Positions 4,807 through 63,988 of a stretch of DNA of 64,000 bases are shown here, piece by piece. The stretch is from the NCBI GenBank assembly GCA_002897695.1, contig BDTG01000043.1:7934-71933 (forward strand), in the 5' to 3' direction. The notes beneath the pieces are model-generated. The model saw nothing but the letters and a program-made list of their open reading frames with translations, did no database searches and was not told where the DNA came from. The position numbers and the translations under genes are program-made. Numbering within the stretch: position 1 is the first letter of the stretch; every line of letters begins with the position of its first letter. This DNA comes from a bacterium BMS3Abin14 (GTDB lineage: Bacteria; BMS3Abin14).

Positions 4807-4932
4807 GATCTTGGGCTTTTTGGACTTCCGAACAGAAACCCGTCGATGGCTATTGACATGATTGGCAATTTGTACTAATGGTTCCCTTTCGTTTCGGGTT
4901 GTTCTGTCTATTCAGCGAGGAATCAAGCAGCG

Positions 4933-5361: not shown

Positions 5362-5397
5362 CTCCACCTATTTGATCCCAGAGGGTAAATATTAAAG

Positions 5398-5790: not shown

Positions 5791-5813
5791 TCTTTCCTCG
5801 ACAGGAATTTTCA

Positions 5814-5847
5814 GGGGAAGGGCCGTTGCGGCTCTTCCCCTTTTTTA
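5814..5847 (+). terminator. Rho-independent terminator after rpsI
   Basis: GGGGAAGggccgttgcggCTCTTCCCC stem followed by TTTTTTA. Confidence 0.7.
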
Positions 5848-5947
5848 TCCACCGTGAAACGCTTTATGGGCTTTTTACGACTCTGTTAATGATTTGTGAT
5901 ATGATTCAATACCTTGGCTGTTCAGGGTAATGTAGACGGGAGGGACG

Positions 5948-7266: not shown

Positions 7267-7296
7267 CACTCTGGACTCTGGACTCTGGACTCTCCC
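7267..7296 (-). repeat. (GTCCAGA)3 tandem heptamer repeat, antisense orientation
   Basis: ccactctggactctggactctggactctcc on + strand; followed by a 9-bp GC stem-loop at 7292-7330. Confidence 0.7.
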
Positions 7297-10016: not shown

Positions 10017-10143
10017 TGATTTTGCAAAAAGTCATCGATAATCTCCCTCTCGCTCTCTATGGGAGAGGGTCAGGGTGAGGGCTTGGAACCGGGTGGATTT
10101 ACCAGGGACTTTTAACGAGTCCATCAACACGTCGAGGTTATCG

Positions 10144-11955
10144 ATGGACAGGATTCAGGACCTGCTCAGTCAGGTAAGGAAAAATCCTAATCGCCCCGAC
10201 CTTCACAGCAGCCTTGGGAGGCTGTATCTTCAGAGGGGCGACAGGGTTGCTGCATCGAAACACTTTCTTTCCTCTGCAAGGCTCTTCGCCGACAGGAGAA
10301 GTCCATCCCGAAACATCAACAAGGCTGTGGCATCCCTGAGAAAATTGATCCGCGATTTTCCCGAAAATCATGACTCGTATTATCTGCTGGCTGATCTTCA
10401 TCTGGAAATGGAAGATACGGAATCGGCCATCGTTATTTATCGTTCCCTCGCCGATATATACCAGAGGGACGGAAAGCTCCTCATGGCTGTTTCGGTATAC
10501 GACAAGATAACCAACTCCGATCCTGAAAATATGGATGGGTGGATAAAGTTTGCGGACCTGAATAAAGAGGCGGGTATGCCCTTCCACTCATCACATTCCT
10601 ATATGCGGGCTGCGTTCCTGAGCTCCGGCATGGGCAGATCGTCCGAGGAGTACGATCTTGCCCTGAGAGCGCTTAAGGTGGACCCGGAAAACAAGCCCGC
10701 GCTTGAGTTGATAGGCCGCCTCATAAAAGAGGGCAATGGGGCAAAACATGATATGGAAGAATTGGTTTCCCTGTCAAGGGAACTGGACAGAGATGGCCAT
10801 TCGGAGCAGGCTCTGACCCTCATTTCTATGCTGGAAAGCGCTTCCGGGGAGCAACGATTTGCCGTCATGGCCGCACAGATGCGTGAGAGGTTGGGCAAGG
10901 ATGGAACACCGGAGACGGAAATTGCCCATCGTAATAAATCATTTTCAGGCAAGTACTCCGGCATGAAGGTTCTCATTGTCGATGATGAGAGGGAAATCAT
11001 TCTTCTGCTTGAACAGATACTCAAGGAGGAGGGATTTCAGGTTCTGATGGCCAGGGATGGTCAACAGGGATACGACATTTTCATGCGTGAAAGGCCTCGT
11101 CTGGTGGTCTCGGATGCGATGTTGCCCAAACTGCACGGCTTTGAACTGTGCAAGAGAATAAAGGAGGAAGCCGGCGAGTCCACAAGGGTGATGATCCTGA
11201 CTGCGGTGTACAAGAAGTACAAATACAAGGGCAAGGTAGAGAAAGAATATGGCGTTGATGAGTATCTGGACAAACCTTTCCAGATCACGGAGTTTATTGA
11301 CACCCTGTATCGAATGGCCAAGGCGGTATCCGGCAAGCCGGACATGAAAAATGCTGCCCTCGATAATGGGAAAAATTCGGCCGAAGGTCTTTTTTTCCTG
11401 ATTGCAGGGGATAATGAGGAGCTTCTTTCCGAGGTCTCGTCCTTTTGCGACCGGAAAGGCTGTGCGTTCAAGGCTGTTCGGGATGCAAAGTCCATGATCT
11501 CTTTCCTCGAGGGAGTAGTGCCGGACATCCTGCTGGTGACCGATCAGCTGCGTGATCTGGCGCCCCCCGCAGCTGCCTGGCTGGTTGAAAGGGTGTTGGG
11601 TATTCGATCTGCCACGAGGGTGTTCATCACAGGAAGCGCCATTCCCGGGGAACGGGACTCCTCCGACTTTCATCACACTGTTTCGGCGCCCGTTAATTTT
11701 GAAACTCTCAATGCAATCGTCCGGTTGCACAGAGGTGCCGATGCCCGTACCGGCCTGAGGGGAAAAGAGAAAAAAATCGGGGTAGACGGAAGACGGATGG
11801 AGGCATTGATCAGGAGCAAGGTCGAGAGGGTATTGAAGAGCCAATATCAGCTGGAACACTACTACACCGGAAAGATCCAGAAGCTGGAGGATGAACTCGG
11901 GGCTATCAAGGCCAGGGGCAAAGGGAAAGACACGGCCAGGGGAAACGGCCAATGA
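10144..11955 (+). CDS. TPR-repeat protein with central receiver (REC) domain and C-terminal degenerate receiver-like domain
   Basis: TPR-like N-terminal half. REC block KVLIVDDEREII…VVSDAMLPKLHGFELC…YLDKPF. Alternative GTG start at 10075 directly after the upstream terminator hairpin; ATG at 10144 preferred. Confidence 0.75.
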   Translation: MDRIQDLLSQVRKNPNRPDLHSSLGRLYLQRGDRVAASKHFLSSARLFADRRSPSRNINKAVASLRKLIRDFPENHDSYYLLADLHLEMEDTESAIVIYRSLADIYQRDGKLLMAVSVYDKITNSDPENMDGWIKFADLNKEAGMPFHSSHSYMRAAFLSSGMGRSSEEYDLALRALKVDPENKPALELIGRLIKEGNGAKHDMEELVSLSRELDRDGHSEQALTLISMLESASGEQRFAVMAAQMRERLGKDGTPETEIAHRNKSFSGKYSGMKVLIVDDEREIILLLEQILKEEGFQVLMARDGQQGYDIFMRERPRLVVSDAMLPKLHGFELCKRIKEEAGESTRVMILTAVYKKYKYKGKVEKEYGVDEYLDKPFQITEFIDTLYRMAKAVSGKPDMKNAALDNGKNSAEGLFFLIAGDNEELLSEVSSFCDRKGCAFKAVRDAKSMISFLEGVVPDILLVTDQLRDLAPPAAAWLVERVLGIRSATRVFITGSAIPGERDSSDFHHTVSAPVNFETLNAIVRLHRGADARTGLRGKEKKIGVDGRRMEALIRSKVERVLKSQYQLEHYYTGKIQKLEDELGAIKARGKGKDTARGNGQ

Positions 11956-16161: not shown

Positions 16162-16194
16162 AGTCCAGAGTCCAGAGTCCAGAGGGAGAAAGAG
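16162..16194 (+). repeat. (GTCCAGA)3 tandem heptamer repeat immediately downstream of the spoT stop
   Basis: agtccagagtccagagtccagagggagaaagag, 8 nt after the stop codon. Confidence 0.75.
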
Positions 16195-35463: not shown

Positions 35464-35493
35464 AGTCCAGAGTCCAGAGAGAAGAAAGGCGGA
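35464..35493 (+). repeat. (GTCCAGA)2 heptamer repeat in the glyQ-glyS spacer
   Basis: cagtccagagtccagagagaag; a degenerate copy gtccaacgtccagcgg lies at 35439-35454. Confidence 0.65.
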
Positions 35494-37657: not shown

Positions 37658-37810
37658 CCCGCCATCTCCTGTCGTCCCAAATCGCCAGAATGTTCTTGAC
37701 CGGAATCGTGGAATTGTACCAGAATGGGCCCGGATAGGGTTTTTCGTTCATGAGTCTTGAGGATCTTGTCCGTCTTATTGTTGGTCGAACAGCTGAAGGG
37801 AACTGGGAGA

Positions 37811-39118
37811 ATGGGAGCTTTCAGAAAGAATGGTTGTGGATATTTTCCGCTTTTTTTGACGGTCTTGGGTTGTCTGGTGGTTCTTGCATCCATGGTTCCT
37901 GTCGCCTGGGCAGCTGAATATTCCCTTTCTTCCAGATCCTATCTCTATCTCCACGAACGTGATAACGCAATCGGTCCCAATGACCATCTGGCTCCCCTTT
38001 ACGAGTACCTGTCCCTTGACGTATGGGACCTCAAGGAGGCTAATCTATCGTTCCATTCGTACGGATGGGGGAGGGTCGATCTCGCGGATGCATCAGCAGG
38101 CGGAAGGAACAGCGGCGACATTTCCAGCGCCTACCTCCAATACCGGTATCCCACCGGAAACGGCCAGGCGAAACTGGGCAGGTTCTTCCTGGCCGAGGGT
38201 ACTACCACCGAAACCCTGGACGGCCTTTTTCTGAAGGGCACAGGGAAAGGGGGCTTCGGCGCGTCATTCTACGCCGGGAACCCGGTGGAGAACTCAATTA
38301 TAGCTTCGGGGGGAGGGAACTCCCTCGTGGGGGGAAGGGTCTTTTACGTCCGTCCCGGTCTTGCCGAAGCCGGTTTTGGCTACCTCTTCGAGAATGGGGA
38401 TTTTCAGGGTAAAAACCGGGAGGAAGCAGGCGGCGATCTCTGGGTGCGTTTCGCGCCTTCATGGGATCTCACCGGTAAGATTGTTTACAACCTGACCACC
38501 AGCGAACTTGCCTCTCATCGGGTAGCGTTCCGCCTGGTCCCCGTCAACACTATTGACCTTGAACTGGGCACTGAAGGTTACCGCTACGATGGTCTGTTTC
38601 AAAAATCCCTTCATCCGGCGTTTCTGCCGCCGTCCGCAAATGGCAGCGACAAGGTCCGAAAACTGTTCGCGGACTGTGACTGGCAGGCCACTGAGAGACT
38701 GTCCGTTCAGGCCGGCGTCAAAAGAATCCACCACGACGCCGATGATCCGGGTGACGCTGCCTACGGAGAGCTTGGCTTTCGCCTTCAGATGGAAGGGGTC
38801 CTGAACCTGCTCGGTTTTTCGGCAGCCCTTCAGACTGCCGATCTGTCGGAGAACGAATATCGGGAATTAAGAGGATGGCTCATGGGAACCGTCAGGAAGT
38901 GGAGTTTTTCCCTCGATGCCCTGACCTATCTCTACGAGGTGCCCGTCAACGGAGTGGATACCTCCACCCAGATTGTAGGCTCTGCCGGTTGGAAGGCCAG
39001 TACCCTTCTTTCTCTTTCCGGCGACGTGAGATACACCCGGAGCCCCCGGTATGCCAAGGATCTGACCATACTGCTCAGGGCGGACTTTGCCCTGGACGGA
39101 TCATGGGGAGGGAAGTAA
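37811..39118 (+). CDS. Secreted Gly-rich protein, putative outer-membrane beta-barrel (porin-like), adjacent to multihaem cytochromes
   Basis: Signal peptide …LASMVPVAWA/AEY; alternating amphipathic beta-strand-like segments; Gly-rich stretches. ATG 37811 preferred over the listed 37757. Confidence 0.5.
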   Translation: MGAFRKNGCGYFPLFLTVLGCLVVLASMVPVAWAAEYSLSSRSYLYLHERDNAIGPNDHLAPLYEYLSLDVWDLKEANLSFHSYGWGRVDLADASAGGRNSGDISSAYLQYRYPTGNGQAKLGRFFLAEGTTTETLDGLFLKGTGKGGFGASFYAGNPVENSIIASGGGNSLVGGRVFYVRPGLAEAGFGYLFENGDFQGKNREEAGGDLWVRFAPSWDLTGKIVYNLTTSELASHRVAFRLVPVNTIDLELGTEGYRYDGLFQKSLHPAFLPPSANGSDKVRKLFADCDWQATERLSVQAGVKRIHHDADDPGDAAYGELGFRLQMEGVLNLLGFSAALQTADLSENEYRELRGWLMGTVRKWSFSLDALTYLYEVPVNGVDTSTQIVGSAGWKASTLLSLSGDVRYTRSPRYAKDLTILLRADFALDGSWGGK

Positions 39119-39120
39119 TT

Positions 39121-39585
39121 ATGAGGTACGTGAGGGGATTTCTGCTTTTTGTGCCGGTGCTGCTTCTCCTGACCGCCTGCTCCGGGTTATCCACAAGAGA
39201 GTCGGTACCGCTCCGCCACCCGGAGGAGCTTGAGCAGGGCAGGGTCAACTGTCTCGAATGTCACGAAGACGAAACGTCCGGAGCCCTTAAACCCTACGGC
39301 TCTTTCCCGCACACGGCGGTTTTTCTCAAGGAACACGGATCTTACGCCTCTCAGACCCAGAACCTCTGTTCCACCTGTCACTCACCCTCCTGGTGTCAGA
39401 CGTGTCATGCCGTCCGTGAGGAACTCAAGCCTGGAATCAAGTACGGCAATCGTCCTGATCTGGGCCTGCCCCATCGGGGAGATTTCATAATACAGCACCA
39501 GAAGGAAGGGAGGATCGACCCGGGATCGTGTCTGACTTGTCACGGCAACCGGAACAACCGGGTATGCGGCAGGTGCCATCATTGA
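39121..39585 (+). CDS. Pentahaem c-type cytochrome lipoprotein
   Basis: Lipobox LLTAC; five CxxCH motifs (CLECH, CSTCH, CQTCH, CLTCH, CGRCH) in 154 aa. Confidence 0.8.
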   Translation: MRYVRGFLLFVPVLLLLTACSGLSTRESVPLRHPEELEQGRVNCLECHEDETSGALKPYGSFPHTAVFLKEHGSYASQTQNLCSTCHSPSWCQTCHAVREELKPGIKYGNRPDLGLPHRGDFIIQHQKEGRIDPGSCLTCHGNRNNRVCGRCHH

Positions 39586-39609
39586 TGACTTCGTGAAAAG
39601 TCATCAATG
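39580..39609 (+). repeat. 12-bp-stem hairpin CATTGATGACTT…AAGTCATCAATG (family-2 related) overlapping the cytochrome stop codon
   Basis: Seen directly; related AAAAGTCATCAAT core also at 10014-10043. Confidence 0.6.
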
Positions 39610-39771
39610 CGCCCACTTGGGGGCCTCAAATCGAAGATTTGTGAGGAGAGCGGAAATGACACTTTTCGCTTTCCGTGGAGTAAAAGGTAACGGATGCACT
39701 TTTTACGACTCTAATAATATATACAGAGCCCGCGAACCAGGGAAACTGTCTGTGATATTCCGGAGGTTGAG

Positions 39772-40431
39772 ATGAAAACAGGGATAAACAGGATAAAAAG
39801 GGAACGGGGAATTGCCGCGGGCCTTTCATCGCCCTGGATACCCGGTGTCTGGGCCCACCCCCTCACCCACACGGATCCGGTAGTATCCCACGGCCAGTTC
39901 AAGGGCACCCCTGACGAGACTGTTTGCATCAACTGCCATGATGTCAACAACCAGTTCGGCAACATGCCCACGCCGTTCTGTCACAACTGCCATGGAAGTT
40001 CCCATAGCGTTCCCTCTCTGGACCACAACCAGGTTGCGCCGCTGCAGGTGGATTTCGATGGGAACTGTTCCGGTTGCCACAGTATCGACGGTTCTGCCCA
40101 GTCATTCGCCCCCGCGTGTACCACCTGCCACAAGGGGGGAAGCCCCTACATCTACACTAACTGCAGGTCCTGCCACGGAAAACCCCCCGACGGCGGAGCC
40201 CCCGTATACAGTAATTTCCCCAATCTGCAGGGGAAGCATGACAAACACAAAAGCGTCGCCACCTGTTCCGACTGCCACAGCGGCGGCGGATCGGGCGCGG
40301 GTCTCAACCACGGTTATGACAACATTGTGAACCTCCAGGCGCCTTCTGGAATCACCTTTTCTCCGGGGAGCGGCAACGTAACCTGTGCCGGTACGTGCCA
40401 CGAGAATCACAACAACCGACAATGGTACTGA
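39772..40431 (+). CDS. Multihaem c-type cytochrome (6 CxxCH plus one CxxxCH)
   Basis: CINCH, CHNCH, CSGCH, CTTCH, CRSCH, CSDCH and CAGTCH; weakly hydrophobic N-terminal region. Confidence 0.75.
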   Translation: MKTGINRIKRERGIAAGLSSPWIPGVWAHPLTHTDPVVSHGQFKGTPDETVCINCHDVNNQFGNMPTPFCHNCHGSSHSVPSLDHNQVAPLQVDFDGNCSGCHSIDGSAQSFAPACTTCHKGGSPYIYTNCRSCHGKPPDGGAPVYSNFPNLQGKHDKHKSVATCSDCHSGGGSGAGLNHGYDNIVNLQAPSGITFSPGSGNVTCAGTCHENHNNRQWY

Positions 40432-40520: not shown

Positions 40521-40597
40521 TGGTGCCCCCGGCAGGACTCGAACCTGCGGCCCCAGGATTAGGAATCCTGTGCTCTATCCTGCTGAGCTACGAGGGC
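40521..40597 (-). tRNA. tRNA-Arg (anticodon CCT), CCA encoded
   Basis: Reverse complement folds as a cloverleaf: acceptor GCCCTCG/CGGGGGC, D-stem GCTC/GAGC, anticodon stem CAGGA/TCCTG with loop TTCCTAA, T-arm GCAGG-TTCGAGT-CCTGC, discriminator A and CCA. Confidence 0.85.
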
Positions 40598-40806
40598 ATT
40601 TGAAGCCTGAAAACGAGTAATGGAAACTAGCACTCAATAATACCGGTGTCAATGCAGGTGCAGCCCCGCAACCCATGCCGGATCAGCATTCTCCGGTGTG
40701 TAACCGACAATTCTCTCCTTGACCATCCCTGGATTTACATATATTTTCCCAAGTTAGCAAATATGTTAATTACTGAAATTTCGGGTCATCGCAAAAACGA
40801 GTATTT

Positions 40807-40891: not shown

Positions 40892-42199
40892 ATGTCGAAT
40901 CTAGCTGAGCTGAAAAAAAAGATTGAAACCCGAACCGCGGTGTGTGCGGTAATCGGCCTGGGATATGTGGGCCTTCCCCTGGCCGTGGAACTTGCACTTG
41001 CCGGTTTCAATGTTGTCGGGATAGACAACGACCCATCCAAAGCCGCCCGCGTCCTGGAAGGGGAGTCGTACATACCGGACGTGCCCTCCGATGTCCTTAA
41101 AAAGGTCACTGAATCAGGCGCCTTTTCCGCAACCGTCGATTTTTCCGTCCTCTCGGATTGCGACACCGTCAACATCTGTGTGCCGACTCCCTTGAACAAG
41201 ACCAGGGATCCGGATATCTCCTTTATTGTCGACAGCCTCGAGGGGATAAAACCTCATGTTCACTCGGGGATGATGATAATTCTGGAAAGTACCACCTACC
41301 CCGGGACCACCGATGAGATCGTTGTGCCTGCCGTTACGGGGACAGACCTGAAGTTGGGGAAGGACATCTTTGTCGCATTCTCACCGGAAAGGGTGGATCC
41401 GGGGAACCCGACATTCAATACCAGGAACATCCCTAAGGTGGTAGGCGGCGCAACCTCCAAATGTACTGAAGTCGCGGTCCTCTTTTACAGGCAGTTTCTG
41501 GAAAAGGTCTTTCCTGTGAGCACCACGGCCGTCGCCGAGATGGTGAAAATCCACGAGAATACCTTCAGAAGTGTTAATATCGGTCTGGTCAACGAACTGG
41601 CCCTCATGTGCGACCGGCTGGAAATCGATGTCTGGGAGGTCATCGAAGGCGCTTCAACCAAACCTTTCGGGTTCCTTCCGTTCTATCCCGGCCCCGGCCT
41701 CGGGGGACACTGCATACCTATCGACCCCTATTACCTCTCCTGGAAGGCCCGTTCGGTAGGTTTCGAGGCCAGATTTATCGAACTGGCAGGGCAAGTCAAC
41801 AGTTTCATGCCCACCCACGTGGTTTCCAGAGCGGTTGACGCCCTTAACGATGTCGGCAAAGCGTTAAAAGGCGCCCGCATCGTGATTTTGGGGGTGGCGT
41901 ACAAGAAAAATATCGACGACCTGCGTGAATCGCCTGCTCTGGACATCATGAATCGACTGAGTGATAAAGGGGTTCAGCTTTCCTTTTCCGATCCATACAT
42001 CCCCACCCTTGACATCGGGGAACGTTCTTTCACCGCAGTTGAGGCTACGCCTGACCTCCTGCAGATGGCCGATCTCGTGATCATCGTCACCGATCACGAC
42101 CTGTTCAATTACGACATGATCGTGTCAAACGCACCCCTCATACTCGACACGAGAAATGCGCTCAAGGGAAAGAACGGGCCGAAGATCTGGAGAATCTAG
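40892..42199 (+). CDS. Nucleotide-sugar dehydrogenase, UDP-N-acetyl-D-glucosamine 6-dehydrogenase-like (WbpO/TviB family)
   Basis: UDPG/MGDP dehydrogenase family with N-terminal extension before GLGYVG, as in WbpO/TviB-type enzymes. Confidence 0.8.
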   Translation: MSNLAELKKKIETRTAVCAVIGLGYVGLPLAVELALAGFNVVGIDNDPSKAARVLEGESYIPDVPSDVLKKVTESGAFSATVDFSVLSDCDTVNICVPTPLNKTRDPDISFIVDSLEGIKPHVHSGMMIILESTTYPGTTDEIVVPAVTGTDLKLGKDIFVAFSPERVDPGNPTFNTRNIPKVVGGATSKCTEVAVLFYRQFLEKVFPVSTTAVAEMVKIHENTFRSVNIGLVNELALMCDRLEIDVWEVIEGASTKPFGFLPFYPGPGLGGHCIPIDPYYLSWKARSVGFEARFIELAGQVNSFMPTHVVSRAVDALNDVGKALKGARIVILGVAYKKNIDDLRESPALDIMNRLSDKGVQLSFSDPYIPTLDIGERSFTAVEATPDLLQMADLVIIVTDHDLFNYDMIVSNAPLILDTRNALKGKNGPKIWRI

Positions 42200-42215
42200 A
42201 TATTGGAGGCCGCGT

Positions 42216-43169
42216 ATGAATGATCGGGTGCTCGTTACCGGCGGTGGGGGGTTCATCGGATCGCACCTGGTCCGTGGGCTCCTGTCTGAGGGTTACAGGG
42301 TATCCGTGCTCGATAACTTCATGACAGGACACAGGAAAAACCTCCAGGAAGTTGCGGGCGATATCGAAGCCGTCTGGGAATCGGACGTAAGGGACCTTCA
42401 ATCCTGTCTGAAAGCCGTGAAGGGCGTCACCGCCGTGTTCCATCTCGCGGCCCTCGCCTCGGTTTCGGGAAGCATTGAGGAACCGATCCTCTCCCATGAG
42501 ATAAACCTCACCGGCACCCTGAACATGCTTCAGGCCGCACGGAAAAATAGCGTTCAGGGATTCATCTTTTCCTCATCCGCGGCTGTTTACGGGGATGGTC
42601 CCGCCATGCCGAAAAAAGAGAACATGAAACCTGATCCGATGTCCCCTTATGCACTTCACAAGCTTGCCGGGGAATACTACTGCAGGCAATATTCAGCTCT
42701 TTTCGGTCTAAAGACAGCATCCCTGAGATACTTTAACGTATTCGGCGCCCGGCAGGACCCTGAAAGTCAGTACGCCGCCGCGGTTCCCATTTTCATGTCG
42801 GCCATCCTGAAGGACGAACCGGTCCATATCTACGGGGATGGGGAGCAAACCAGGGACTTTGTCTACGTCGGGGACGTGGTACGGGCCAATCTTCAGGCCC
42901 TCAGGTCCGAGGGGCTCAACGGACAGGTGATGAACATCGCCGGTGGAGAGAAGGTCACTATTAACGGGCTCCTGAAGGCTCTCGAAGCCGTCTCGGGCGT
43001 ATCGGCCGAAAAGGTGTACTCCGATCCACGGCCAGGTGACATAAGACACTCCAGGGCTGATATTTCAGCGGCTTCCGCCCATATCGGCTACAAACCGGCA
43101 GTTGGTCTCGAGGATGGTTTACGCAGGACCTTTCAATGGTTCCGCAAGGCCCGGTGGGCCGGGCAATGA
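42216..43169 (+). CDS. NAD-dependent epimerase, UDP-GlcNAc(A) C4-epimerase-like (WbpP/TviC family)
   Basis: GGGGFIGS Rossmann motif, YxxxK catalytic motif (YALHK); paired with the WbpO-like gene. Confidence 0.8.
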   Translation: MNDRVLVTGGGGFIGSHLVRGLLSEGYRVSVLDNFMTGHRKNLQEVAGDIEAVWESDVRDLQSCLKAVKGVTAVFHLAALASVSGSIEEPILSHEINLTGTLNMLQAARKNSVQGFIFSSSAAVYGDGPAMPKKENMKPDPMSPYALHKLAGEYYCRQYSALFGLKTASLRYFNVFGARQDPESQYAAAVPIFMSAILKDEPVHIYGDGEQTRDFVYVGDVVRANLQALRSEGLNGQVMNIAGGEKVTINGLLKALEAVSGVSAEKVYSDPRPGDIRHSRADISAASAHIGYKPAVGLEDGLRRTFQWFRKARWAGQ

Positions 43170-44275
43170 TCTCCCGCGACGGTTTCGCGCTGAAAGTCCT
43201 GAAGCACATGAAGAGCGCGCTCGTCGTCATTGACAGGGAGGGAAGTGTGCTTGTCCTGAACCGGTCTGCAAGAAAAATCCTCTCCCTCGGCAACGAGGAC
43301 ATCGCAATAGGGAAAAGCTGCAGAGATGTCTTTGCGGCCTACCCGTATCTTTCGGATCTGCTCATGACCTCCTTCGACATCCACACTCTGCCGGATCGAG
43401 CCGAGCTGGAATTGAAGGGGCGGCCTGCCGGAGACCGGAAGGTTGTAGGGTACACCCTTTCCCCGGTTTACGGGGACGATGGTGAACGGCTGGGAACGGC
43501 CCTGTTCTTCAAGGATCTTACTGAGGTTGAACGCCAGGAAACGAAGGAACGGATCAGGGATCGCCTTGTATCCCTGGGTGAGATGGCTGCCTGGCTCGCG
43601 CATGAGATACGCAACCCTCTTGCCGCCATCGAGGTATCCGCCGGCCTCCTTTTGAAGGATGAGAAGGATCCATCACGCACGGAATCCGTACGGGATATCC
43701 TTTCGGAAGTTAAAAGGCTCAATACGATTATTACCCAGACCCTGGATTTCGTCCGATCCAGGCCTTTGAACCTGCAGTACTGTGATCTCAACGCGGTGCT
43801 CACCGACACCCTGAATGAATGCCTCCAGGGCAGGAATGACATCGAAATTTCGCTCACATTGAACGATATCGGCCCCGTGCTCCTTGACACACCCCAGATC
43901 TCCCATGCGCTGGGAAACATCATTGTCAACTCCTGTGAGGCGATGCCCGATGGAGGTACATTGAGCGTGTCCATATACACAGTGCCTTCGGAAGCGGGAG
44001 GTCAGGTTCCCGAAACTTTCACGAATCATGTCGTACGGGAAATGGAGAACATCGTGGTGGAGATAGCCGATACGGGTGTCGGAATCCCGGAGGATGTGAT
44101 CGGCAAGGTCTTCACCCCTTTCTTTACTACAAAAAACGGTGGAACGGGGATCGGCATGTCCCTTGCCCAGAAAGTGGTTACGGAGCACTGGGGTATTCTG
44201 GACATTGAAAGCGCCTATGGAAAAGGGACCAAATTCAAGGTTATACTACCCAAATTCACATCTGTGGAGGGTTAG
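43166..44275 (+). CDS. Sensor histidine kinase (PAS - HisKA - HATPase_c), cytoplasmic
   Basis: H-box AHEIRNPL, N/G1/G2 boxes (…NSCEAM…, DTGVGI, GGTGIGMS). Start overlaps the epimerase stop (ATGA). Confidence 0.8.
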   Translation: MISRDGFALKVLKHMKSALVVIDREGSVLVLNRSARKILSLGNEDIAIGKSCRDVFAAYPYLSDLLMTSFDIHTLPDRAELELKGRPAGDRKVVGYTLSPVYGDDGERLGTALFFKDLTEVERQETKERIRDRLVSLGEMAAWLAHEIRNPLAAIEVSAGLLLKDEKDPSRTESVRDILSEVKRLNTIITQTLDFVRSRPLNLQYCDLNAVLTDTLNECLQGRNDIEISLTLNDIGPVLLDTPQISHALGNIIVNSCEAMPDGGTLSVSIYTVPSEAGGQVPETFTNHVVREMENIVVEIADTGVGIPEDVIGKVFTPFFTTKNGGTGIGMSLAQKVVTEHWGILDIESAYGKGTKFKVILPKFTSVEG

Positions 44276-44299
44276 ACAGCATTACAACAGGAGATTTGA

Positions 44300-45671
44300 C
44301 GTGGGCAGGTTTCTGATAGTGGAAGACCAGGCGGTGCTTCGCAAGGGCATCGTCAAGGTGTTTATTGCCGATGGTCACAATGTGGACGAGGCGGCAGATG
44401 GTGAGACAGCACTTCAATTGCTGTCCCGGTGGAATTACGATGTGGTGATCACGGACCTTAAACTTCCCGGGATCAGCGGGATGGAGGTCCTGAAGCATTC
44501 GAAGGCCAACGCTCCGGCCACCGACGTGTTGATCATGACCGCCTACGGGACCATCGAAACAGCCATCGAGGCCATGAAACTTGGGGCCTTTGATTTCCTG
44601 CAGAAGCCGTTCGGCATACCGGAGCTGGAAATGCGCGTTGAAAAGGCTCTGCAGCAGAGAATGCTGAAAAACGAGGTGGATTATCTGCGTCATGAGAGGG
44701 ATATCGTCTACAGGATTGAGGACTTTATCGGGGAGAGCCCGGCCATAAAGAAAGTTTACCGCGATGTATCCAGGGTGGCTCCATCCTCAACCAACGTCCT
44801 TATCACCGGTGAGACCGGGACCGGAAAAGAACTTATCGCCGGGGCGATCCATTACAACAGCCCAAGGGCAAAAAACAGCTTTATCAAGGTTAACTGCGCT
44901 GCCATCCCGGAAAACCTTCTTGAGAGCGAGCTGTTCGGCCATGAAAAGGGGGCGTTCACAGGTGCTGTCAACCAGAGAATAGGGCGTTTTGAACAGGCGA
45001 ACGGCGGGAGTATCCTCCTGGACGAGATCGGGGACATGAGCCCCCTTATTCAGGCCAAGATACTCCGTGTGATCCAGGACCGGCAGTTTGAAAGGCTCGG
45101 AGGCAATGCGGTCATTACGTCGGATGTGAGGATCATAGCGGCTACCAACAAGGACCTCGCCAGGGAGATGGAGATAGGTACATTCAGAGAGGATCTGTTT
45201 TACCGTTTGAATGTCGTTCACATCCCTCTTCCCTCCCTCAGGGAACGGCAGGGGGATATCCCCCTGCTCACGGATTTCTTTATCAAGCGCTTTAACGGGG
45301 AATTAAAGAGGGATGTCAAGGGTGTCGGTGAGCAGGCCATGAAGACCATGCTCAGCTACACATGGCCGGGAAACGTCCGGGAGCTGGAAAATGCACTTGA
45401 GCGAGCGGTTCTCATGTCTGACGGTGACTATCTGGATGTGTCGGACATTAATATCTCCGCCCCTGTCATGCCATTCAGGGATGTTCATACCCCCGGCACC
45501 TCCCCGCTCGATCTCAAGGACCTGGAAAAGGAGGCGGTCCTGGAGGCCCTGAGAAAGACTGACTATGTCCAGAAGGACGCCGCAGAGGTCCTCGGAATCT
45601 CAAAGAGGGTCATGCACTACAAAATCCAGCAGTTCGGCATCAAGCATCCCCGATGGATCAAAAACCGATAA
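44300..45671 (+). CDS. Sigma-54-dependent transcriptional regulator, NtrC-type (REC - AAA+ sigma54-activation - Fis HTH)
   Basis: REC with ITDLKLP; Walker [15 protein letters not shown], Walker [20 protein letters not shown]-terminal HTH; GTG start with RBS aggag. Confidence 0.9.
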
Positions 45672-45673
45672 CG

Positions 45674-45716
45674 AAAGTCCAGAGTCGAAAGTCCAGAGTC
45701 CAGAGGGGAAAAGCGG
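45674..45716 (+). repeat. (GTCCAGA) heptamer repeat cluster directly after the stop of EBP1
   Basis: gaaagtccagagtcgaaagtccagagtccagaggggaaaagcggg. Confidence 0.75.
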
Positions 45717-45992
45717 GCAATGCGCTGTAGGCTCTGGGCTATGGGTAAAGAGGTCCAGAAAACAATGTCCAATGACCAGCGATGTCATTGCGAGGAGCAT
45801 CGAGGGAAACGAGAGTGACGGTTTACCACGTCGAAGCCACAGGAGCGAAGACGGGCGGCAATCCAGAAGGCGGAACCTTTATAACATATTGACAACATGA
45901 CTGCCTAAAAGTTATTACAAAATTGAAACATCTCATGGAATTGTGTGCAGAAATCTGTTCTGCCGGGGGGCGAGGGGAGTCGGAAGTTGGCA

Positions 45993-47345
45993 ATGGTGCT
46001 GGTAGTAGAGGATGATCTTGATTTCAGGGAACTTGTGGCTGGAGTTCTGTCGGAAAACGGGTACAGGGTTGACGAGGCGCCTGACGGTGAGACGGCCCTC
46101 CAGCTGATCGGCAATACAAAGTATGACGTCATTATCTGTGACGTAAAGCTCCCGGGGATTTCCGGCATGGATGTGCTCCGGGAGGCCAAATCCCAGTCGC
46201 CAGACACTGAAGTCCTCATAATGACCAGTTACGGATCAGTGGACAGCGCCGTAAAATCCATGAAGATGGGCGGGTTCGATTATCTTCAGAAACCGTTTGG
46301 CCTTGCTGAACTTGAGATGAGGGTAGAAAAGGCGGTTCGCCACAGGATGCTCTGCAATGAGGTCTCCTATCTCAGGCACGAGCGTGACATCATATACCGG
46401 TTTGAGGACATCATCGGAAGGAGCCACTCGACCAGGGAGTTCCTGGAGGAGGCTGAACGCGCTGCGATGGTGGACGGCCCGGTCCTTCTTTACGGAGAGC
46501 CGGGAACCGGTCGAAAACTCATTGCGGGGGCGATCCATTACAACAGCGAACGTCATAGCGGGGGTTTTGTGCGTGTCAACAGCGCCGGCATGCGGGAAAG
46601 ATACCTTGCCGGCGACCTCTTCGGCCACGTACGGGGCGCTTTTGACGGCGCCGGCCGCGCCAGGACCGGGCGTTTCGAACAGGCCAATGACGGCACCATC
46701 CTCCTCGAGGAAATCTCCCATGTTTCCCTTGACAACCAGGACCGTATTCTCGAGTTTCTTGAAACCGGAAAACTCCTTCGGATCGGACACTCGAAGTCCA
46801 TTTCACTTGACGTCCGCCTTATTGTCACATCAAGCACGGACCTTGGAAAGAAGGTGCGCGAAGGGGGGTTCCGCGAGGAACTGTATTCATTGATATCTGC
46901 CACCACCATTCGGGTTCCCCCATTGAGAAGTCGAAAGGAAGACATTCCCCTCCTTGCCGAATATTTTTTGAGATCTCTTCCAAAAGAGCTTATGAAACAG
47001 GATGTTGTCAGTATCTCCTCCTCAGCTTTCGTGAAGCTCACAGAGTATCCATGGCCCGGGAATATCAGGGAATTGAAGAACGTTATCGAACGTTCCGTTC
47101 TGACCGGCACCGGGGAGATAATTGAGGCGTCGGACATCCAGCTGCCCGATGAGAATGTGGCTTCCTCAGGATACTCGGGACTGATTCTGAAAGAAATGGA
47201 GAAAGCCGCCGTTGTGGACGCACTGAGGAGAGCAAACTTCGTTCAGAAGGACGCCGCAAAGATACTGGGCATCACAAAAAGGGTGATGCACTACAAGATC
47301 CAACAGTTCGGGATCAAGCATCCCCGGTGGATTAAGAACAGATAA
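45993..47345 (+). CDS. Paralogous NtrC-type regulator with degenerate AAA+ motifs (putative ATPase-inactive pseudo-EBP)
   Basis: Same architecture and an almost identical C-terminal HTH (VQKDAA…[21 protein letters not shown]). Walker A GEPGTGRKL (K to R), GAFDGA in place of GAFTGA, Walker B ILLEEI (D to E). ORF opens at GTG 45945; ATG 45993 preferred. Confidence 0.8.
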   Translation: MVLVVEDDLDFRELVAGVLSENGYRVDEAPDGETALQLIGNTKYDVIICDVKLPGISGMDVLREAKSQSPDTEVLIMTSYGSVDSAVKSMKMGGFDYLQKPFGLAELEMRVEKAVRHRMLCNEVSYLRHERDIIYRFEDIIGRSHSTREFLEEAERAAMVDGPVLLYGEPGTGRKLIAGAIHYNSERHSGGFVRVNSAGMRERYLAGDLFGHVRGAFDGAGRARTGRFEQANDGTILLEEISHVSLDNQDRILEFLETGKLLRIGHSKSISLDVRLIVTSSTDLGKKVREGGFREELYSLISATTIRVPPLRSRKEDIPLLAEYFLRSLPKELMKQDVVSISSSAFVKLTEYPWPGNIRELKNVIERSVLTGTGEIIEASDIQLPDENVASSGYSGLILKEMEKAAVVDALRRANFVQKDAAKILGITKRVMHYKIQQFGIKHPRWIKNR

Positions 47346-47347
47346 AG

Positions 47348-47380
47348 AAAGTCCAGAACTGTTCTTCCCCTCTGGACTCT
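47348..47380 (+). repeat. GTCCAGA-derived hairpin directly after the stop of EBP2
   Basis: aaagtccagaactgttcttcccctctggactct forms an 8-bp stem AGTCCAGA/TCTGGACT. Confidence 0.7.
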
Positions 47381-47396
47381 TAATCAGGAGGTTAAA

Positions 47397-48704
47397 ATGC
47401 ACATTACAGTTATCGGAACCGGGTACGTCGGGCTGGTGACAGGAACCTGTTTCGCCGAGTTCGGGGTTGATGTTACCTGCGTGGACAACGATCCGGAGAA
47501 GGTCTCCATGCTCAAGAAAGGCAAGATCCCCATTTACGAGCCCGGGCTCGAGGAGATGGTGAGGAAAAATACTGATGAGGGGAGGCTGCACTTTTCCACC
47601 AATATCGTTGATGGAATTGAAGAATCCCTGGTTATCTTCATCGCTGTCGGAACGCCACCCCGGGAGGATGGAAGCGCCGATCTGACCTATGTGGAGGATG
47701 TGGCCGGCAGCATCGGGAAGAACATGAACGATTACAAGGTGATCGTTACCAAGAGCACAGTTCCGGTGGGAACAGGAGAGAGGATTCGGGAGATCATTTC
47801 CGGCTACAGGCCGGACAACGATTTTGATGTCGCCTCGAACCCGGAATTCCTGCGGGAGGGATCAGCTATCGAGGATTTCATGCGGCCTGACCGTATCGTT
47901 ATCGGGGCGGAAAGTTCCCAGGCCAAGGCCATTCTCAAGGACCTGTACAAGCCCCTGTATCTCATCGAAACGCCCTTTGTGATAACCAACGTCGTTACGG
48001 CCGAACTTATAAAATACGCCTCCAACGCCTTTCTGGCCACCAAGATCTCCTTTATTAACGAGATGGGAAATATCTGCGAGGCCATTGGAGGCGATGTCAA
48101 CGTTATTGCCAGAGCCATGGGGCTTGATGGACGGATCGGCCCGAAATTTCTTCATGCCGGACCGGGCTACGGGGGGTCCTGCTTTCCCAAGGACACCAGC
48201 GCCCTGACGCGGATCGCCAGGGAGGTGGGAGAGCCGACCGGAATCGTGGAATCGGTGATCAGGGTCAATGAGAAGCAGAAGATGAGAGCATTTGAGAAAG
48301 TCCTGCATGCCTCCGGCGGCTCGCTCATGGGAAAAACGGTCGCCCTTCTCGGCCTGGCGTTCAAACCCAATACCGACGATTTTCGGGATGCCCCCGCCGA
48401 GGTAATTATTCGGGGGATCACAGGTGGAGGCGGGAACGTGAAAGCATACGATCCCGCGGCCATGGGACAGGCAAGGGATGTCCTCGGCGACGATGGGATA
48501 AAATACTGCAAAAATGCCTATGATGCCGTTGAGGATGCCGATGTGATGGTAATCGTCACCGAGTGGAATCAATTTCGTCTCCTGAACCTGGCCAGGTGCA
48601 TGGAACTTATGAAGGAGCCTGTCCTCGTTGATCTCCGAAATGTCTGCGACCCGAATCTCACACGGGAGATGGGGTTTAAATACATATCCGTTGGAAGACC
48701 GTAA
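47397..48704 (+). CDS. ugd: UDP-glucose 6-dehydrogenase
   Basis: GTGYVG NAD motif; catalytic Cys region GGSCFPKD. Confidence 0.9.
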   Translation: MHITVIGTGYVGLVTGTCFAEFGVDVTCVDNDPEKVSMLKKGKIPIYEPGLEEMVRKNTDEGRLHFSTNIVDGIEESLVIFIAVGTPPREDGSADLTYVEDVAGSIGKNMNDYKVIVTKSTVPVGTGERIREIISGYRPDNDFDVASNPEFLREGSAIEDFMRPDRIVIGAESSQAKAILKDLYKPLYLIETPFVITNVVTAELIKYASNAFLATKISFINEMGNICEAIGGDVNVIARAMGLDGRIGPKFLHAGPGYGGSCFPKDTSALTRIAREVGEPTGIVESVIRVNEKQKMRAFEKVLHASGGSLMGKTVALLGLAFKPNTDDFRDAPAEVIIRGITGGGGNVKAYDPAAMGQARDVLGDDGIKYCKNAYDAVEDADVMVIVTEWNQFRLLNLARCMELMKEPVLVDLRNVCDPNLTREMGFKYISVGRP

Positions 48705-48709
48705 CCACC

Positions 48710-49693
48710 GTGGAAATACAGGCAAAAGACCCCGCTTCGGGGAGAATTGCACCCGGTAAGGTCCTCGTGACGGGCGGAGCGGGATTTATCGGATCCCATC
48801 TGTGTGAGAGACTGCTGGAGCTTGGCTGTGAGGTGGTATGCCTGGACAATTTCAACGATTTTTACGACCCGGCCATTAAGAGGCATAATATTGCCGGTCT
48901 GTTGGCGAATCCGGGTTTTTCCCTCCATGAGGGGGACATAAGGGATGTGACCCTTGTGAATACACTTTTCGAAGGGGAAAGGCCGGAAGCTGTGGCCCAC
49001 CTCGCCGCCATGGCCGGGGTCAGGCCCTCCATCGAGGAACCGGTTCTCTATTACGATGTCAACGTGACCGGGACTGCAGTCGTACTGGAGGCCGCAAGGA
49101 AGCAAGGGGCTTCCAATTTTATCTTCGGATCCTCTTCCTCGGTGTACGGGAGCCAGGAAAAGACACCCTTTAGTGAAAAGGACCCCGTGAGCCGTCCTAT
49201 CAGCCCTTACGCGGCATCCAAGGCGGCGGGAGAGCTTCTGTGCCACACCTGCCATCACCTTTTCGGTATGCCCATAACCTGTCTCCGCTTTTTCACCGTT
49301 TACGGGCCGAGGCAGAGGCCCGAGATGGCAATCCACCTTTTTGCGAAACTCATTAGAGACGGAAAAGCTGTTACCGTGTATGGTGATGGTCACAGCCGGA
49401 GGGATTATACATTCGTCGAGGATATTATTGACGGAATTGTGAGATCGCTTGAAAGGCCCCATGGATACGAGATCTTCAATCTCGGCGAGTCCAGGACCGT
49501 TGAGCTGCTTGAGTTGATCGGGTTGATCGAGAAGGGGGTCGGCCGCAAGGCAATTCTGAGGATGCTTCCGGTTCAGCCAGGTGATGTCCCTGTCACTTTC
49601 GCGGATATTGACCATGCCCGTTCTTCTCTGGGCTACAACCCCTCCACACCCATTGAGGAGGGAATCGAGAGATTCATCGAGTGGTTTTCTTGA
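48710..49693 (+). CDS. NAD-dependent epimerase, UDP-glucuronate 4-epimerase-like
   Basis: GGAGFIGS, YAASK catalytic motif; directly downstream of ugd. Confidence 0.75.
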   Translation: MEIQAKDPASGRIAPGKVLVTGGAGFIGSHLCERLLELGCEVVCLDNFNDFYDPAIKRHNIAGLLANPGFSLHEGDIRDVTLVNTLFEGERPEAVAHLAAMAGVRPSIEEPVLYYDVNVTGTAVVLEAARKQGASNFIFGSSSSVYGSQEKTPFSEKDPVSRPISPYAASKAAGELLCHTCHHLFGMPITCLRFFTVYGPRQRPEMAIHLFAKLIRDGKAVTVYGDGHSRRDYTFVEDIIDGIVRSLERPHGYEIFNLGESRTVELLELIGLIEKGVGRKAILRMLPVQPGDVPVTFADIDHARSSLGYNPSTPIEEGIERFIEWFS

Positions 49694-50033: not shown

Positions 50034-50696
50034 ATGATAGACCTGCACGCCCACACCTTTGCCAGCGACGGTGAACTTCTACACTCGGAGCTCATCCGAC
50101 GGGCCATTTCGGCCGGGTATCGGGCCATCGGTATTACGGACCATGCTGATGAAACGAATTTGGAAGAGCTTGTGAGCCGGGCTGTCAGGGCATCGGACGC
50201 GTGGAAGGGCACAGCAAAGCTCCAGGTCGTTCCAGGTGTGGAGATTACCCACGTTCCCCCTGAAAGAATCCCCGGGTTAGCCGCAAGAGCCAGGGAATTG
50301 GGCGCGCTTCTGGTAGTAGTGCACGGAGAGACCATAACGGAGCCCGTTACTCCGGGAACCAACGCGGCCGCGGCCGGATGCCGGGATGTAGACATTCTGG
50401 CCCATCCCGGCCTTATTTCCAGGACAGATGCCGCACTGGCTGCTGAAAATGGGGTTTTCCTGGAGATTACCGCCAGACCGGGCCACTCTGCCGCCAATGG
50501 CCACGTGGCTGCTGTCGGAAGGGCCTCCGGGGCGCCTCTCGTTCTGAATACGGATACCCATGCTCCCGGCGATCTCATCAGCCTGGACATGGCTGCAATA
50601 ATTCTGGAGGCGGCGGGACTCGATTCCAGTGAGGGAGAAACCGTTATCCGGAATGCCGGCCGCCTTCTGAGCGCCATCATGGCGCACGGACGGTAA
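50034..50696 (+). CDS. PHP-domain metal-dependent phosphoesterase (histidinol-phosphatase family)
   Basis: N-terminal MIDLHAHT…SDG, internal ITDHAD, HGET, C-terminal …NTDTHAP histidine/aspartate motif set of PHP domains. Confidence 0.7.
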   Translation: MIDLHAHTFASDGELLHSELIRRAISAGYRAIGITDHADETNLEELVSRAVRASDAWKGTAKLQVVPGVEITHVPPERIPGLAARARELGALLVVVHGETITEPVTPGTNAAAAGCRDVDILAHPGLISRTDAALAAENGVFLEITARPGHSAANGHVAAVGRASGAPLVLNTDTHAPGDLISLDMAAIILEAAGLDSSEGETVIRNAGRLLSAIMAHGR

Positions 50697-61979: not shown

Positions 61980-63020
61980 ATGAAAAAGGCGTTGATCACA
62001 GGCATTACGGGGCAGGATGGATCCTATCTCGCTGAGTTTCTTCTGGCGAAAGGCTACGAGGTTCACGGAATCATCAGAAGGGCCAGCACTTTCAATACCG
62101 CACGGATCGACCACCTCTATGTGGATACTCACATCAACAACGTCACCTTCTATCTTCATTACGGGGACTTAGCGGACCCAAGCCAGATTTACAACATCAT
62201 CCACAACATCCATCCTGACGAGATCTACCATCTTGGGGCCCAGAGCCACGTTCGCGTCAGCTTCGACATCCCGGAATACACAGGCGACGTTACGGGACTG
62301 GGGACGATACGGCTCCTCGAGGCGATCCGGAGGAGCGGGATCAAGACCCGCTATTACCAGGCGTCCAGCAGCGAGATGTTCGGTAATTCACCCCCTCCCC
62401 AGGGCGAGAACACGGTATTTTATCCCAGGAGCCCCTATGCGGCCGCAAAGGTTTACTCCCACTGGATGACCGTAAACTACCGGGAGGCGTACAGCCTTTA
62501 CGCATGCAGCGGCATCCTTTTTAACCACGAAAGCCCAAGGAGGGGTGAGACGTTCGTTACCCGGAAGATAACCCGGGCTCTCGCCAACATCCAGGCGGGC
62601 AGGCAGAAGAAACTTTATCTGGGGAACCTTAAGGCCGGCAGGGACTGGGGGTTCGCCCCCGATTACGTCAAGGCCATGTGGATGATCCTCCAGCAGGAGC
62701 GCCCGGAAGATTTCGTCATCTCAACAGGTGAGACGCACACCGTGGAGGAGTTCCTCGTTGAGGCGTTTTCCTACGCCGGGCTCGATCATCAGAAATACGT
62801 CGAGATCGATCCAAAATATTTCAGGCCCACGGAGGTGGACGTTCTCACCGGTGACTCCTCCAAAGCCCGCCGCGTACTCGGCTGGAAGCCCCTGGTCTCC
62901 TTCAGGGAACTCGTCAGGATCATGGTTGACTCCGACATGGAGGCCGCAGGCCTCACTTCGCCGGGGGAGGGAAAAGCGATTCTGGCGGAGAAGGACTTCG
63001 GATGGATAAAGAGACCCTAG
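61980..63020 (+). CDS. gmd: GDP-mannose 4,6-dehydratase
   Basis: [16 protein letters not shown]-terminus; YAAAK catalytic motif. Confidence 0.95.
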
Positions 63021-63049
63021 ATGTGGGCGACAGCACCGATAGGGGTGGT

Positions 63050-63988
63050 ATGGATCTGAGGGAAAAGAATATTCTGGTTACCGGCGGCGCCGGGTTCCTG
63101 GGCGGTTTCGTCACCCGGGCGCTCAGGGATGAAGGAGTTTCGTCGTCCAGGATACACATACCAAGGAGCCGGGATGTTGACCTCAGAATCCAGGAAAACT
63201 GTGTCGCCGCCGTAAGGGGGAAGGAAGTCGTTATCCACCTCGCCGCCAGTGTCGGGGGGATCGGGTTCAACAGGAGAAACCCGGGAGTTCTCTTCTACGA
63301 CAACATCATTATGGGCGCCAACCTCATGGAGGCGGCCCGTCTCGAAGGTGTGGAGAAGTTTGTTCAGGTGGGCACCGTATGCGCCTACCCCAAAAACACC
63401 CCTGTTCCGTTTTCCGAGGATTCCCTCTGGGACGGGTATCCCGAGGAAACCAACGCTCCCTACGGCGTAGCCAAAAGGGCGCTTCTGGTTCAGGCTCAGG
63501 CCTACCGGGAACAGTATGGATTAAATGCCGTATTTCTCCTCCCGGTCAACCTCTACGGGCCCAACGACAACTTCGACCTGGAGGATTCCCACGTTATTCC
63601 GGCCCTTATCAGGAAGTGCGTTGAGGCGGTGGATGGGGGAAGGGATATTCTCGACGTCTGGGGCTCAGGAAACGCAACACGGGAGTTTCTTTACGTACAG
63701 GACTGCGCAAGGGGAATTGTTCAGGCCACCCGTGATTACGATGGTTCCGAACCTGTGAACCTGGGATCCGGCAGGGAGATCACCATAAGGGACCTGGTGG
63801 GGCTCATTGCGAAACTCACAGGCTTTACGGGATCCATAAGGTGGAACCTCACCCGGCCGGACGGCCAGCCGAGGAGATGTCTCGATACCTCCAGGGCCAG
63901 GGCGTTCGGTTTTTCGGCCACCACATCCCTGGAGGATGGGCTTGCCCGCACCATCAGATGGTACCGTGAACACGGGAAGGAAATTTAA
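63050..63988 (+). CDS. fcl: GDP-L-fucose synthase (GDP-4-keto-6-deoxymannose epimerase/reductase)
   Basis: GGAGFLG, YGVAK motif. ATG 63050 preferred over the listed 63002, which overlaps gmd. Confidence 0.9.

Follow-up and report, generated by a model that had tools for sequence, protein, structure and literature searches.

A degenerate enhancer-binding-protein paralogue conserved beside uronic-acid precursor genes in the candidate phylum BMS3Abin14 is a candidate sigma-54-independent response regulator

A stretch of 64,000 nucleotides from bacterium BMS3Abin14 (assembly GCA_002897695.1, contig BDTG01000043.1, positions 7,934 to 71,933 of the forward strand; hereafter the window) carries a cluster in which two pairs of genes for uronic-acid sugar nucleotides enclose a PAS histidine kinase and two tandem response regulators of the enhancer-binding protein (EBP) type, EBP1 and EBP2. 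A first-pass annotation of this DNA, made from the letters alone, predicted sigma-54-dependent control of an acidic surface polysaccharide. Control of the sugar-acid genes is probably not sigma-54-dependent here, because EBP2, the conserved regulator of the block, no longer has the residues needed for ATPase activity and for contact with sigma-54. The best explanation, to which we give a probability of about one half, is that the cluster comprises two transcription units, that EBP2 acts as a sigma-54-independent regulator and that the kinase and EBP1 provide an additional input.

EBP1 and EBP2 are tandem paralogues sharing 51% identity. All motifs inspected in EBP1 are intact (Walker A GETGTGKE, Walker B ILLDEIG, the sigma-54 contact loop GAFTGA, sensor I ATN and YRLN in the Arg finger region), and on this evidence it is a predicted canonical sigma-54 activator. 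Its ratio of non-synonymous to synonymous substitution rates (dN/dS) is 0.09. The corresponding positions of EBP2 read GEPGTGRK (K>R), ILLEEIS, with EE instead of DE (D>E), GAFDGA, TSS (N>S) and YSLIS, and the second Arg finger is lost. The receiver Asp, Thr and Lys, the sensor II Arg and the helix–turn–helix (HTH) are unchanged.

These substitutions recur throughout a large family. A database search returned approximately 70 sequence clusters with the EBP2 pattern, versus approximately nine of the EBP1 type. Among the 72 degenerate sequences in which residues were counted, the Walker A Lys is replaced by Arg in 65, the GAFTGA Thr by Pro, Asp or Glu in 68, the Walker B Asp by Glu in 64 and the sensor I Asn by Ser in 66; the sensor II Arg is kept, but not the Arg fingers. 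The receiver residues persist: D53 is present in each of the 68 sequences that extend over its column, K103 in 71 of the 72, T81 in 67 and D9 in 63. The dN/dS of EBP2 is 0.16 for the gene as a whole and 0.18 for its AAA+ domain. In a neighbour-joining (NJ) tree, the degenerate proteins form one monophyletic clade, sister to the EBP1 clade, and its basal subgroup has lost GAFTGA and still possesses the Walker A Lys. The term ‘pseudo-EBP’ used in the first-pass annotation thus does not suit this gene. Several mutated catalytic motifs might suggest a decaying pseudogene copy of EBP1. This is refuted by the intact reading frame, the recurrence of the substitutions in some 70 clusters, the low dN/dS and the conservation of receiver and HTH, and we consider it hardly conceivable. 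By these measures, EBP2 is an intact gene under selection and a phylum-wide paralogue of EBP1 without the catalytic and sigma-54 contact residues.

The HTH and C-terminal tail (the last ~33 residues) are near-identical in the two proteins (31 of 33 residues; some 90% in the final 30 codons). A recent conversion event at the 3' ends of the two genes was ruled out, as the third position varies in 15 of 37 identical codons. The presence of synonymous differences in a near-identical HTH argues for selection for the same DNA specificity. The linker between receiver and AAA+ domains is also highly conserved in EBP1 and EBP2 (73–80% identity). In NtrC1 and DctD, receiver dimers control assembly, and the conserved linker of EBP2 would fit control of this type.

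Several atypical EBPs are known, namely VpsR, NtrX, TyrR, PhhR, HupR and HsfA, of which VpsR works with sigma-70 and controls polysaccharide genes (PMC6158489). A change of the GAFTGA Thr to Pro renders NifA inactive (PMC4641369). EBP2 resembles the six proteins listed, as well as the Caulobacter NtrC, in its loss of GAFTGA and its non-consensus Walker motifs; the REC-AAA+-HTH architecture is also common to EBP2 and the atypical EBPs, although REC is present in only some of them. However, EBP2 is more degenerate, with the Walker A Lys, Walker B Asp, sensor I and Arg fingers all changed, and, unlike the atypical EBPs, it adjoins in one clade an active paralogue whose DNA-binding helix it shares. 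It is not an NtrX orthologue: the NtrX model gives 283.5 bits for a cut-off of 600, and the NtrX structure in the PDB 216.7 bits versus 328.9 for NtrC4. The closest solved relatives of EBP2 are NtrC4 of Aquifex aeolicus and NtrC1, which are active ATPases and sigma-54 activators. A FleQ-like role as a cyclic di-GMP receptor was considered and rejected, since both EBP1 and EBP2 have Gly-Ala where the contact residues of FleQ after Walker A are Arg-Asn. The best-supported assignment places EBP2 in a new family of EBP-like response regulators that are atypical, sigma-54-independent and tied to the operon for uronic-acid precursors.

The arrangement of the cluster is not due to chance, as 12 independent related loci show it as well (L002, L082–L090, L211 and L212; EBP2 identity 43–82%; a further locus, L001, is from the same organism). 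EBP2 is present in every locus whose contig reaches its position and, wherever the stretch from Ugd through the second epimerase and the DUF6812 gene to the PHP gene is on the contig, EBP2 is the next gene of the conserved block on its 5' side. The series EBP2–Ugd–epimerase–DUF6812–PHP is kept in nine of the 12 loci (L002, L082, L084–L087, L089, L211 and L212). On the short contigs of L083 and L090, EBP2–Ugd is kept; L088 ends approximately 330 nt past EBP2 and shows none of the four downstream genes. In L084, L090 and L212, small genes are inserted between EBP2 and Ugd. In L082, located on a 2.78-Mb contig, the five genes remain together with different genes on both flanks, which argues for a five-gene functional unit.

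The kinase–EBP1 pair is found in the window and in only three of the 12 loci (L002, L086 and L089), all of one subclade. L082, L084, L085, L088, L090 and L211 lack the pair; L212 does not have it in its known stretch, which stops short of the first dehydrogenase, and the sequences of L083 and L087 do not extend to this side of the block. The nearest outgroup carries a canonical EBP and a PAS kinase in a housekeeping context, without sugar genes. Sigma-54-dependent control is consequently not the conserved logic of these loci, in which EBP2 occurs wherever its position is reached, preceded in 10 of the loci by a sigma-70-like element.

This element lies in the 321-nt gap between EBP1 and EBP2, and a gap of this size containing its own conserved promoter-like element indicates two transcription units rather than one. 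It consists of TTGACA (45889-45894), 18 nt and TATTACAAAATTGAAACA (45913-45930), and across the loci its downstream half can be written as TATTACAAAAnTGAAACA. It was found upstream of EBP2 in 10 loci, is unique in each of them (chance expectation in the window, 0.10) and is the only conserved non-coding element that we found. Its invariant bases form an inverted repeat, TTnCA-N4-TGnAA (45915-45928). Conservation reaching well past the -10 box points to a promoter overlapped by an operator. The gap between EBP2 and Ugd is 51 nt in the window and ranges from 20 to 91 nt among the window, L002, L089 and L211; these short distances suggest that EBP2 and Ugd are co-transcribed. No promoter upstream of Ugd common to all loci was found. 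A scan of the window and eight related loci with a weighted -24/-12 consensus yielded only low-scoring matches within coding regions and no credible sigma-54 promoter, in agreement with the first-pass annotation, which had seen none in the cluster.

The spacer preceding the element is rich in repeats (Table 1), and its overall folding is no better than that of shuffled sequence. At its end stands a sequence resembling a miniature inverted-repeat transposable element (MITE; 45784-45866), which starts with GTCATTGCGAGGAG and includes GGCAATCC. MITE-like elements occupy the same spacer in L002 (2350-2690), L082 (9133-10000), L089 (6909-7491) and L088 (5566-6103), and L082 and L089 contain multiple copies.

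Several observations weigh against EBP2 being an autoregulator acting at this element. The -10-like box, TATTAC, does not end in the usual T, and a simple sigma-70 scan missed it; the palindrome is weak outside its 5+5 invariant bases, and the conserved element could be a promoter only. No second copy was detected near other genes by position weight matrix and regular-expression scans, and the only other strict match to TTnCA-N4-TGnAA in the window, at 11079, is inside an ORF (open reading frame), that of the second of two large response regulators. Locus L211, the most divergent, has no such element. The phylogeny comes from one NJ tree that carries no support values. Finally, in at least five loci synteny runs on through TPR, IorAB, PaaK, ACT and Liv genes, which are functionally unrelated; being neighbours is thus, taken by itself, weak evidence of regulation, and the conservation is partly plain inheritance. 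A metagenome scan with TATTACAAAANTGAAACA gave at least 120 matches, mostly on lower-GC contigs, which we take as chance; no EBP2 or Ugd homologue was among the matches listed. The two large response regulators adjoin each other at 7353-11955 and comprise 887 aa with two receivers and 626 aa with TPR repeats and a receiver.

No hydrophobic segment is present in the kinase (maximum 19-aa hydropathy, 0.85), as expected from its description as cytoplasmic in the first-pass annotation. Its H, N, G1 and G2 boxes are all intact which, together with the receiver residues of EBP1 and EBP2, makes the set of phosphorelay residues complete. In two-component systems, partner specificity is carried by the receiver alpha1 helix. 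This helix reads EDQxVLRKG(I/V)V in every EBP1 orthologue and EDDxDFR(E/D)L(I/L) in the EBP2 proteins. Because the two helices differ, and that of EBP2 is unchanged whether or not the kinase is present, the PAS kinase is probably cognate to EBP1 and EBP2 is probably served by another phosphodonor; the earlier notion of one kinase serving two EBPs is thus doubtful. The start of EBP1, a GTG preceded by the ribosome-binding site AGGAG, was chosen by alignment with L002. The ATGA at 43166-43169, first described as the overlap of two start codons, is in reality formed by the epimerase stop TGA and the kinase start ATG. The translational coupling of sensor and epimerase proposed on that basis is consistent with this overlap and with a 1-nt overlap in L089, but not with the 190-nt gap found in L086. 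Identity with the PEP-CTERM/exosortase pair PrsK–PrsR (models TIGR02915 and TIGR02916) was rejected, both proteins being under the cut-offs (EBP1, 413 versus 502.6; kinase, 74 versus 300). In L086, the EBP1 orthologue (4661-6057) is broken by two frameshifts, with a duplicated segment at the frameshift. Decay of the gene was rejected as an explanation: intact near-identical proteins exist (P0068 and P0069), and an assembly error is likelier.

We propose the following organization. Unit 1 (40892-45671) would comprise the N-acetylhexosamine-type dehydrogenase, the WbpP-like epimerase, the soluble PAS kinase and EBP1. Unit 2 would begin at the sigma-70-like element and contain EBP2, Ugd, the epimerase resembling UDP-glucuronate (UDP-GlcA) 4-epimerases, the DUF6812 gene and the PHP gene. 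EBP2 would be a DNA-binding regulator of its own operon, controlled by phosphorylation and independent of sigma-54, and hence of the supply of UDP-GlcA and UDP-galacturonate (UDP-GalA); autoregulation would probably operate via the inverted repeat overlapping its own -10-like box. The kinase and EBP1 would represent a clade-specific extra input, in which the kinase most likely phosphorylates EBP1 and EBP1 most likely drives sigma-54 promoters located outside the window. EBP1 may also recognize the sites of EBP2, because the DNA-binding helix is common to both.

A different scheme, closer to the initial prediction, has the kinase phosphorylating EBP1 (and EBP2), EBP1 activating distant sigma-54 promoters of glycosyltransferase or export genes, and EBP2 as an accessory. 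The fully canonical EBP1 is compatible with it, as are the kinase–epimerase overlaps in the window and L089, and cell-exterior functions are commonly under sigma-54 control (PMC3162934, PMC4641369). Nevertheless, the kinase and EBP1 are missing from nine of the 12 loci with sugar genes and EBP2 (three of which, L083, L087 and L212, are incompletely reached upstream), EBP1-type clusters are far outnumbered by EBP2-type clusters, neither the 64 kb nor the eight related loci yielded a sigma-54 promoter, and kinase–epimerase coupling is lost in L086. We regard this scheme as possible, if rather doubtful. A complete lack of regulatory connexion, with a gene order simply inherited in a slowly rearranging phylum and regulators that control unrelated genes, would account for the continuation of the block into the TPR, IorAB, PaaK, ACT and Liv genes and for the housekeeping context of the kinase–EBP pair in the nearest outgroup. 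It is difficult to reconcile with L082, which keeps exactly the five genes from EBP2 to PHP between different flanks, with the short EBP2–Ugd gaps suggestive of co-transcription and with a conserved element that stands upstream of EBP2 only; we find it distinctly improbable.

EBP2 might also be an antagonist or partner of EBP1, gating it through mixed dimers or rings or through competition for the enhancer and for phosphoryl groups. Paralogous EBP pairs such as HrpR/HrpS, RedR1/RedR2 and VnfA/AnfA are of interest here; in these, both partners are reportedly catalytically competent, and HrpR and HrpS have no receiver domain. EBP1 and EBP2 differ from all three pairs in that one partner is degenerate and usually found alone. 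A co-dependent pair of the HrpR/HrpS type was accordingly rejected, EBP2 being degenerate and devoid of an EBP1 neighbour in L082, L084, L085, L088, L090 and L211. The likeness, a loose one for HrpR/HrpS and RedR1/RedR2, lies in the tandem or co-occurring paralogues, which may share promoters, and interaction between paralogous EBPs is documented (PMC3105312, PMC10084136, PMC9542535). The level of identity between EBP1 and EBP2, their near-identical HTH and their similar linkers agree with a partnership, whereas the alpha1 helices differ and the loss of Arg fingers would poison a ring rather than complement it. Since most lineages have EBP2 without EBP1, gating could not be its general function and would be conceivable only in the clade with both genes; we consider it unlikely. 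Similarly unlikely, in our opinion, is a composite of these ideas, in which EBP2 is a stable ‘retired’ AAA+ activator that senses phosphorylation and binds the ancestral enhancers, acting alone as a sigma-70-type repressor or activator and, where it stands beside EBP1, sharing its sites or rings and setting the threshold of sigma-54 activation.

The known atypical EBPs are a handful of unrelated cases, and the route from sigma-54 activator to sigma-70-type regulator is poorly understood. A single phylum here displays three stages: the active, ancestor-like EBP1; a partly degenerate clade that has lost GAFTGA and kept the Walker A Lys; and a fully degenerate clade. A single DNA-binding helix and a single genomic position beside uronic-acid precursor genes are common to all three. 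Should the unlikely reading of EBP2 as a ‘retired’ activator hold, the protein would be an extant intermediate on the way from sigma-54 activator to conventional regulator. The locus also provides a first regulatory hypothesis for glycan synthesis in the candidate phylum BMS3Abin14. The proteins are small and soluble, which makes in vitro work on heterologously produced proteins possible without culturing the organism. Neither the enzymology nor the occurrence of regulators in glycan loci is out of the ordinary; a phylum-wide degenerate paralogue that retains its receiver and DNA-binding helix is unusual. The practical weight of this finding is modest, as it adds a further regulator family, from a lineage not in culture, with an inferred mechanism.

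The coordinates of the cluster are given in Table 1. All seven genes named by the first-pass annotation are on the plus strand at the positions it reported, and ORF listing and profile searches confirm its order dehydrogenase–epimerase–kinase–EBP1–EBP2–Ugd–epimerase. It also placed a PHP gene after the second epimerase; this gene is indeed present, but the DUF6812 gene in between had been overlooked.

Table 1. Features of the cluster and its borders (window coordinates)
Feature	Position	Strand	Support
tRNA-Arg(CCT), left boundary of cluster	40521..40597	-	ARAGORN; Rfam tRNA 69.5 bits
Candidate sigma-70-type promoter of operon 1, TTGACC-17-TATTTT	40719..40747	+	Consensus match only
UDP-N-acetylhexosamine-type 6-dehydrogenase (WecC/Cap5O/WbpO/TviB clade)	40892..42199	+	Pfam; TIGR03026 409.8 bits (cut-off 189.8)
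Short-chain dehydrogenase/reductase (SDR) 4-epimerase, WbpP/WbgU/TviC-like	42216..43169	+	PF01370 217.6 bits; PDB WbgU/WbpP ~250 bits
Soluble PAS-HisKA-HATPase histidine kinase	43166..44275	+	Pfam profiles
EBP1, canonical REC-AAA+-HTH sigma-54 activator, NtrC1/AtoC type (predicted)	44301..45671	+	PF00158 239.8 bits
Repeat-rich spacer: AGTCCAG heptamer array, hairpin after EBP1 stop, then GTCATTGCGAGGAG...GGCAATCC element	45676..45866	+	
EBP2 upstream element, candidate promoter and operator	45889..45930	+	Conserved in 10 loci
EBP2, degenerate (atypical) EBP	45993..47345	+	PF00158 161 bits (fold-level match kept)
Ugd, UDP-glucose 6-dehydrogenase (Ugd/TuaD-like)	47397..48704	+	TIGR03026 468.7 bits
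SDR epimerase, UDP-glucuronate 4-epimerase group	48710..49693	+	PF01370; PDB 5u4q 273 bits; 6zl6 204 bits
DUF6812 small protein, 92 aa	49748..50026	+	PF20660 46.2 bits
PHP-family metal phosphoesterase, PRK06361 type	50034..50696	+	NF004981 287.7 bits (cut-off 117)

The enzyme families proposed initially are right according to profiles and PDB matches, at family level only, as all equivalog models remain under their cut-offs. The closest solved relatives of the first dehydrogenase are Cap5O (the top PDB match, 223 bits), a UDP-ManNAcA dehydrogenase and an NDP-GalNAcA dehydrogenase; it reaches 255 bits for the UDP-ManNAc dehydrogenase model (cut-off 459) and 214 for the TviB model (cut-off 592). 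UDP-ManNAc dehydrogenases are at least as near as the GalNAcA type, and the assignment is one of family. The first epimerase scores 229.5 bits with the TviC model (cut-off 760) and Ugd 562 bits with the TuaD model (cut-off 700). Structure 6zl6, matched by the second epimerase, is the UDP-GlcA 4-epimerase of B. cereus; this gene may start at 48746, as in the public record. The sugar genes belong to the same families, in the same order, as WbpO/WbpP and TviB/TviC, which make UDP-GalNAcA, and Ugd with UDP-GlcA 4-epimerase, which make UDP-GalA. They differ from these pairs in falling under all equivalog cut-offs, and their products are predicted only. The candidate promoter of operon 1 has no conserved counterpart in other loci, since the genes upstream are different there.

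In relatives, the sugar genes directly follow initiating transferases. Loci L089 and L090 have a Glycos_transf_4 initiating transferase 5' of the first dehydrogenase, and L085 has a full Wzx/sulfotransferase/Wzy/GT4/radical-SAM/GT4/Bac_transf cluster 5' of the block. These upstream genes strengthen the initial proposal of a role in surface polysaccharide synthesis, and the link of the block to a surface glycan is thereby supported at the level of gene content. No glycosyltransferase, flippase or rpoN gene was found within the 64-kb window.

The DUF6812 gene is the most conserved of the block, with 75–86% identity to most relatives (range 49–86%), versus 52–82% for EBP2 in the same loci. The predicted structure of its product has medium confidence (predicted local distance difference test score, pLDDT, 65.6), and its weak structural matches are uniformly to Sm/LSm folds. 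The protein possibly has an Sm-like fold and may be an RNA-binding partner of the operon. We found no support for the PHP protein being a tyrosine phosphatase of the CpsB/YwqE type, its PDB matches being remote only. Small genes of family PF05635 (‘23S rRNA intervening sequence protein’) occur among the sugar-nucleotide genes of L084, L086, L088, L090 and L212, and none in the window; toxin–antitoxin genes occupy the same places in L088, L090 and L212.

The window is core chromosome, and the cluster lies within a synteny block of the candidate phylum BMS3Abin14 of GTDB, Ca. Hudomiota, of which this bacterium is the namesake. On the 5' side of the cluster are genes for EF-G, Era, MgtE, RecO, GlyQS, an outer-membrane-like protein and multihaem cytochromes, followed by the tRNA-Arg gene, the sole match of an Rfam search of the window. 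The position of this tRNA gene is taken in relatives by polysaccharide-initiation genes. At 37757-40431, a beta-barrel-like outer-membrane protein without Pfam match precedes two multihaem c-type cytochromes. These could be a porin–cytochrome module, and they stand in place of the glycan-initiation genes of relatives. On the 3' side are a TPR protein, IorAB, PaaK, a Liv transporter and gmd–fcl. The last pair, at the window edge (61980-63988), consists of gmd (GDP-mannose 4,6-dehydratase, above cut-off) and a GDP-fucose-synthase-like gene, and may be the start of a further glycan cluster past this edge.

Tandem heptanucleotide arrays are present in intergenic DNA of the window at 1046-1075, 1237-1259, 7268-7293, 16162-16184, 35464-35479 and 45676-45705, and likewise between genes in L002, L082, L084–L086 and L088–L090. 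The unit is AGTCCAG in the window and GTTTGAG, CCGTGAA, AATCACT or GGAAACT in relatives. The arrays are frequently inverted pairs, able to make long hairpins between genes.

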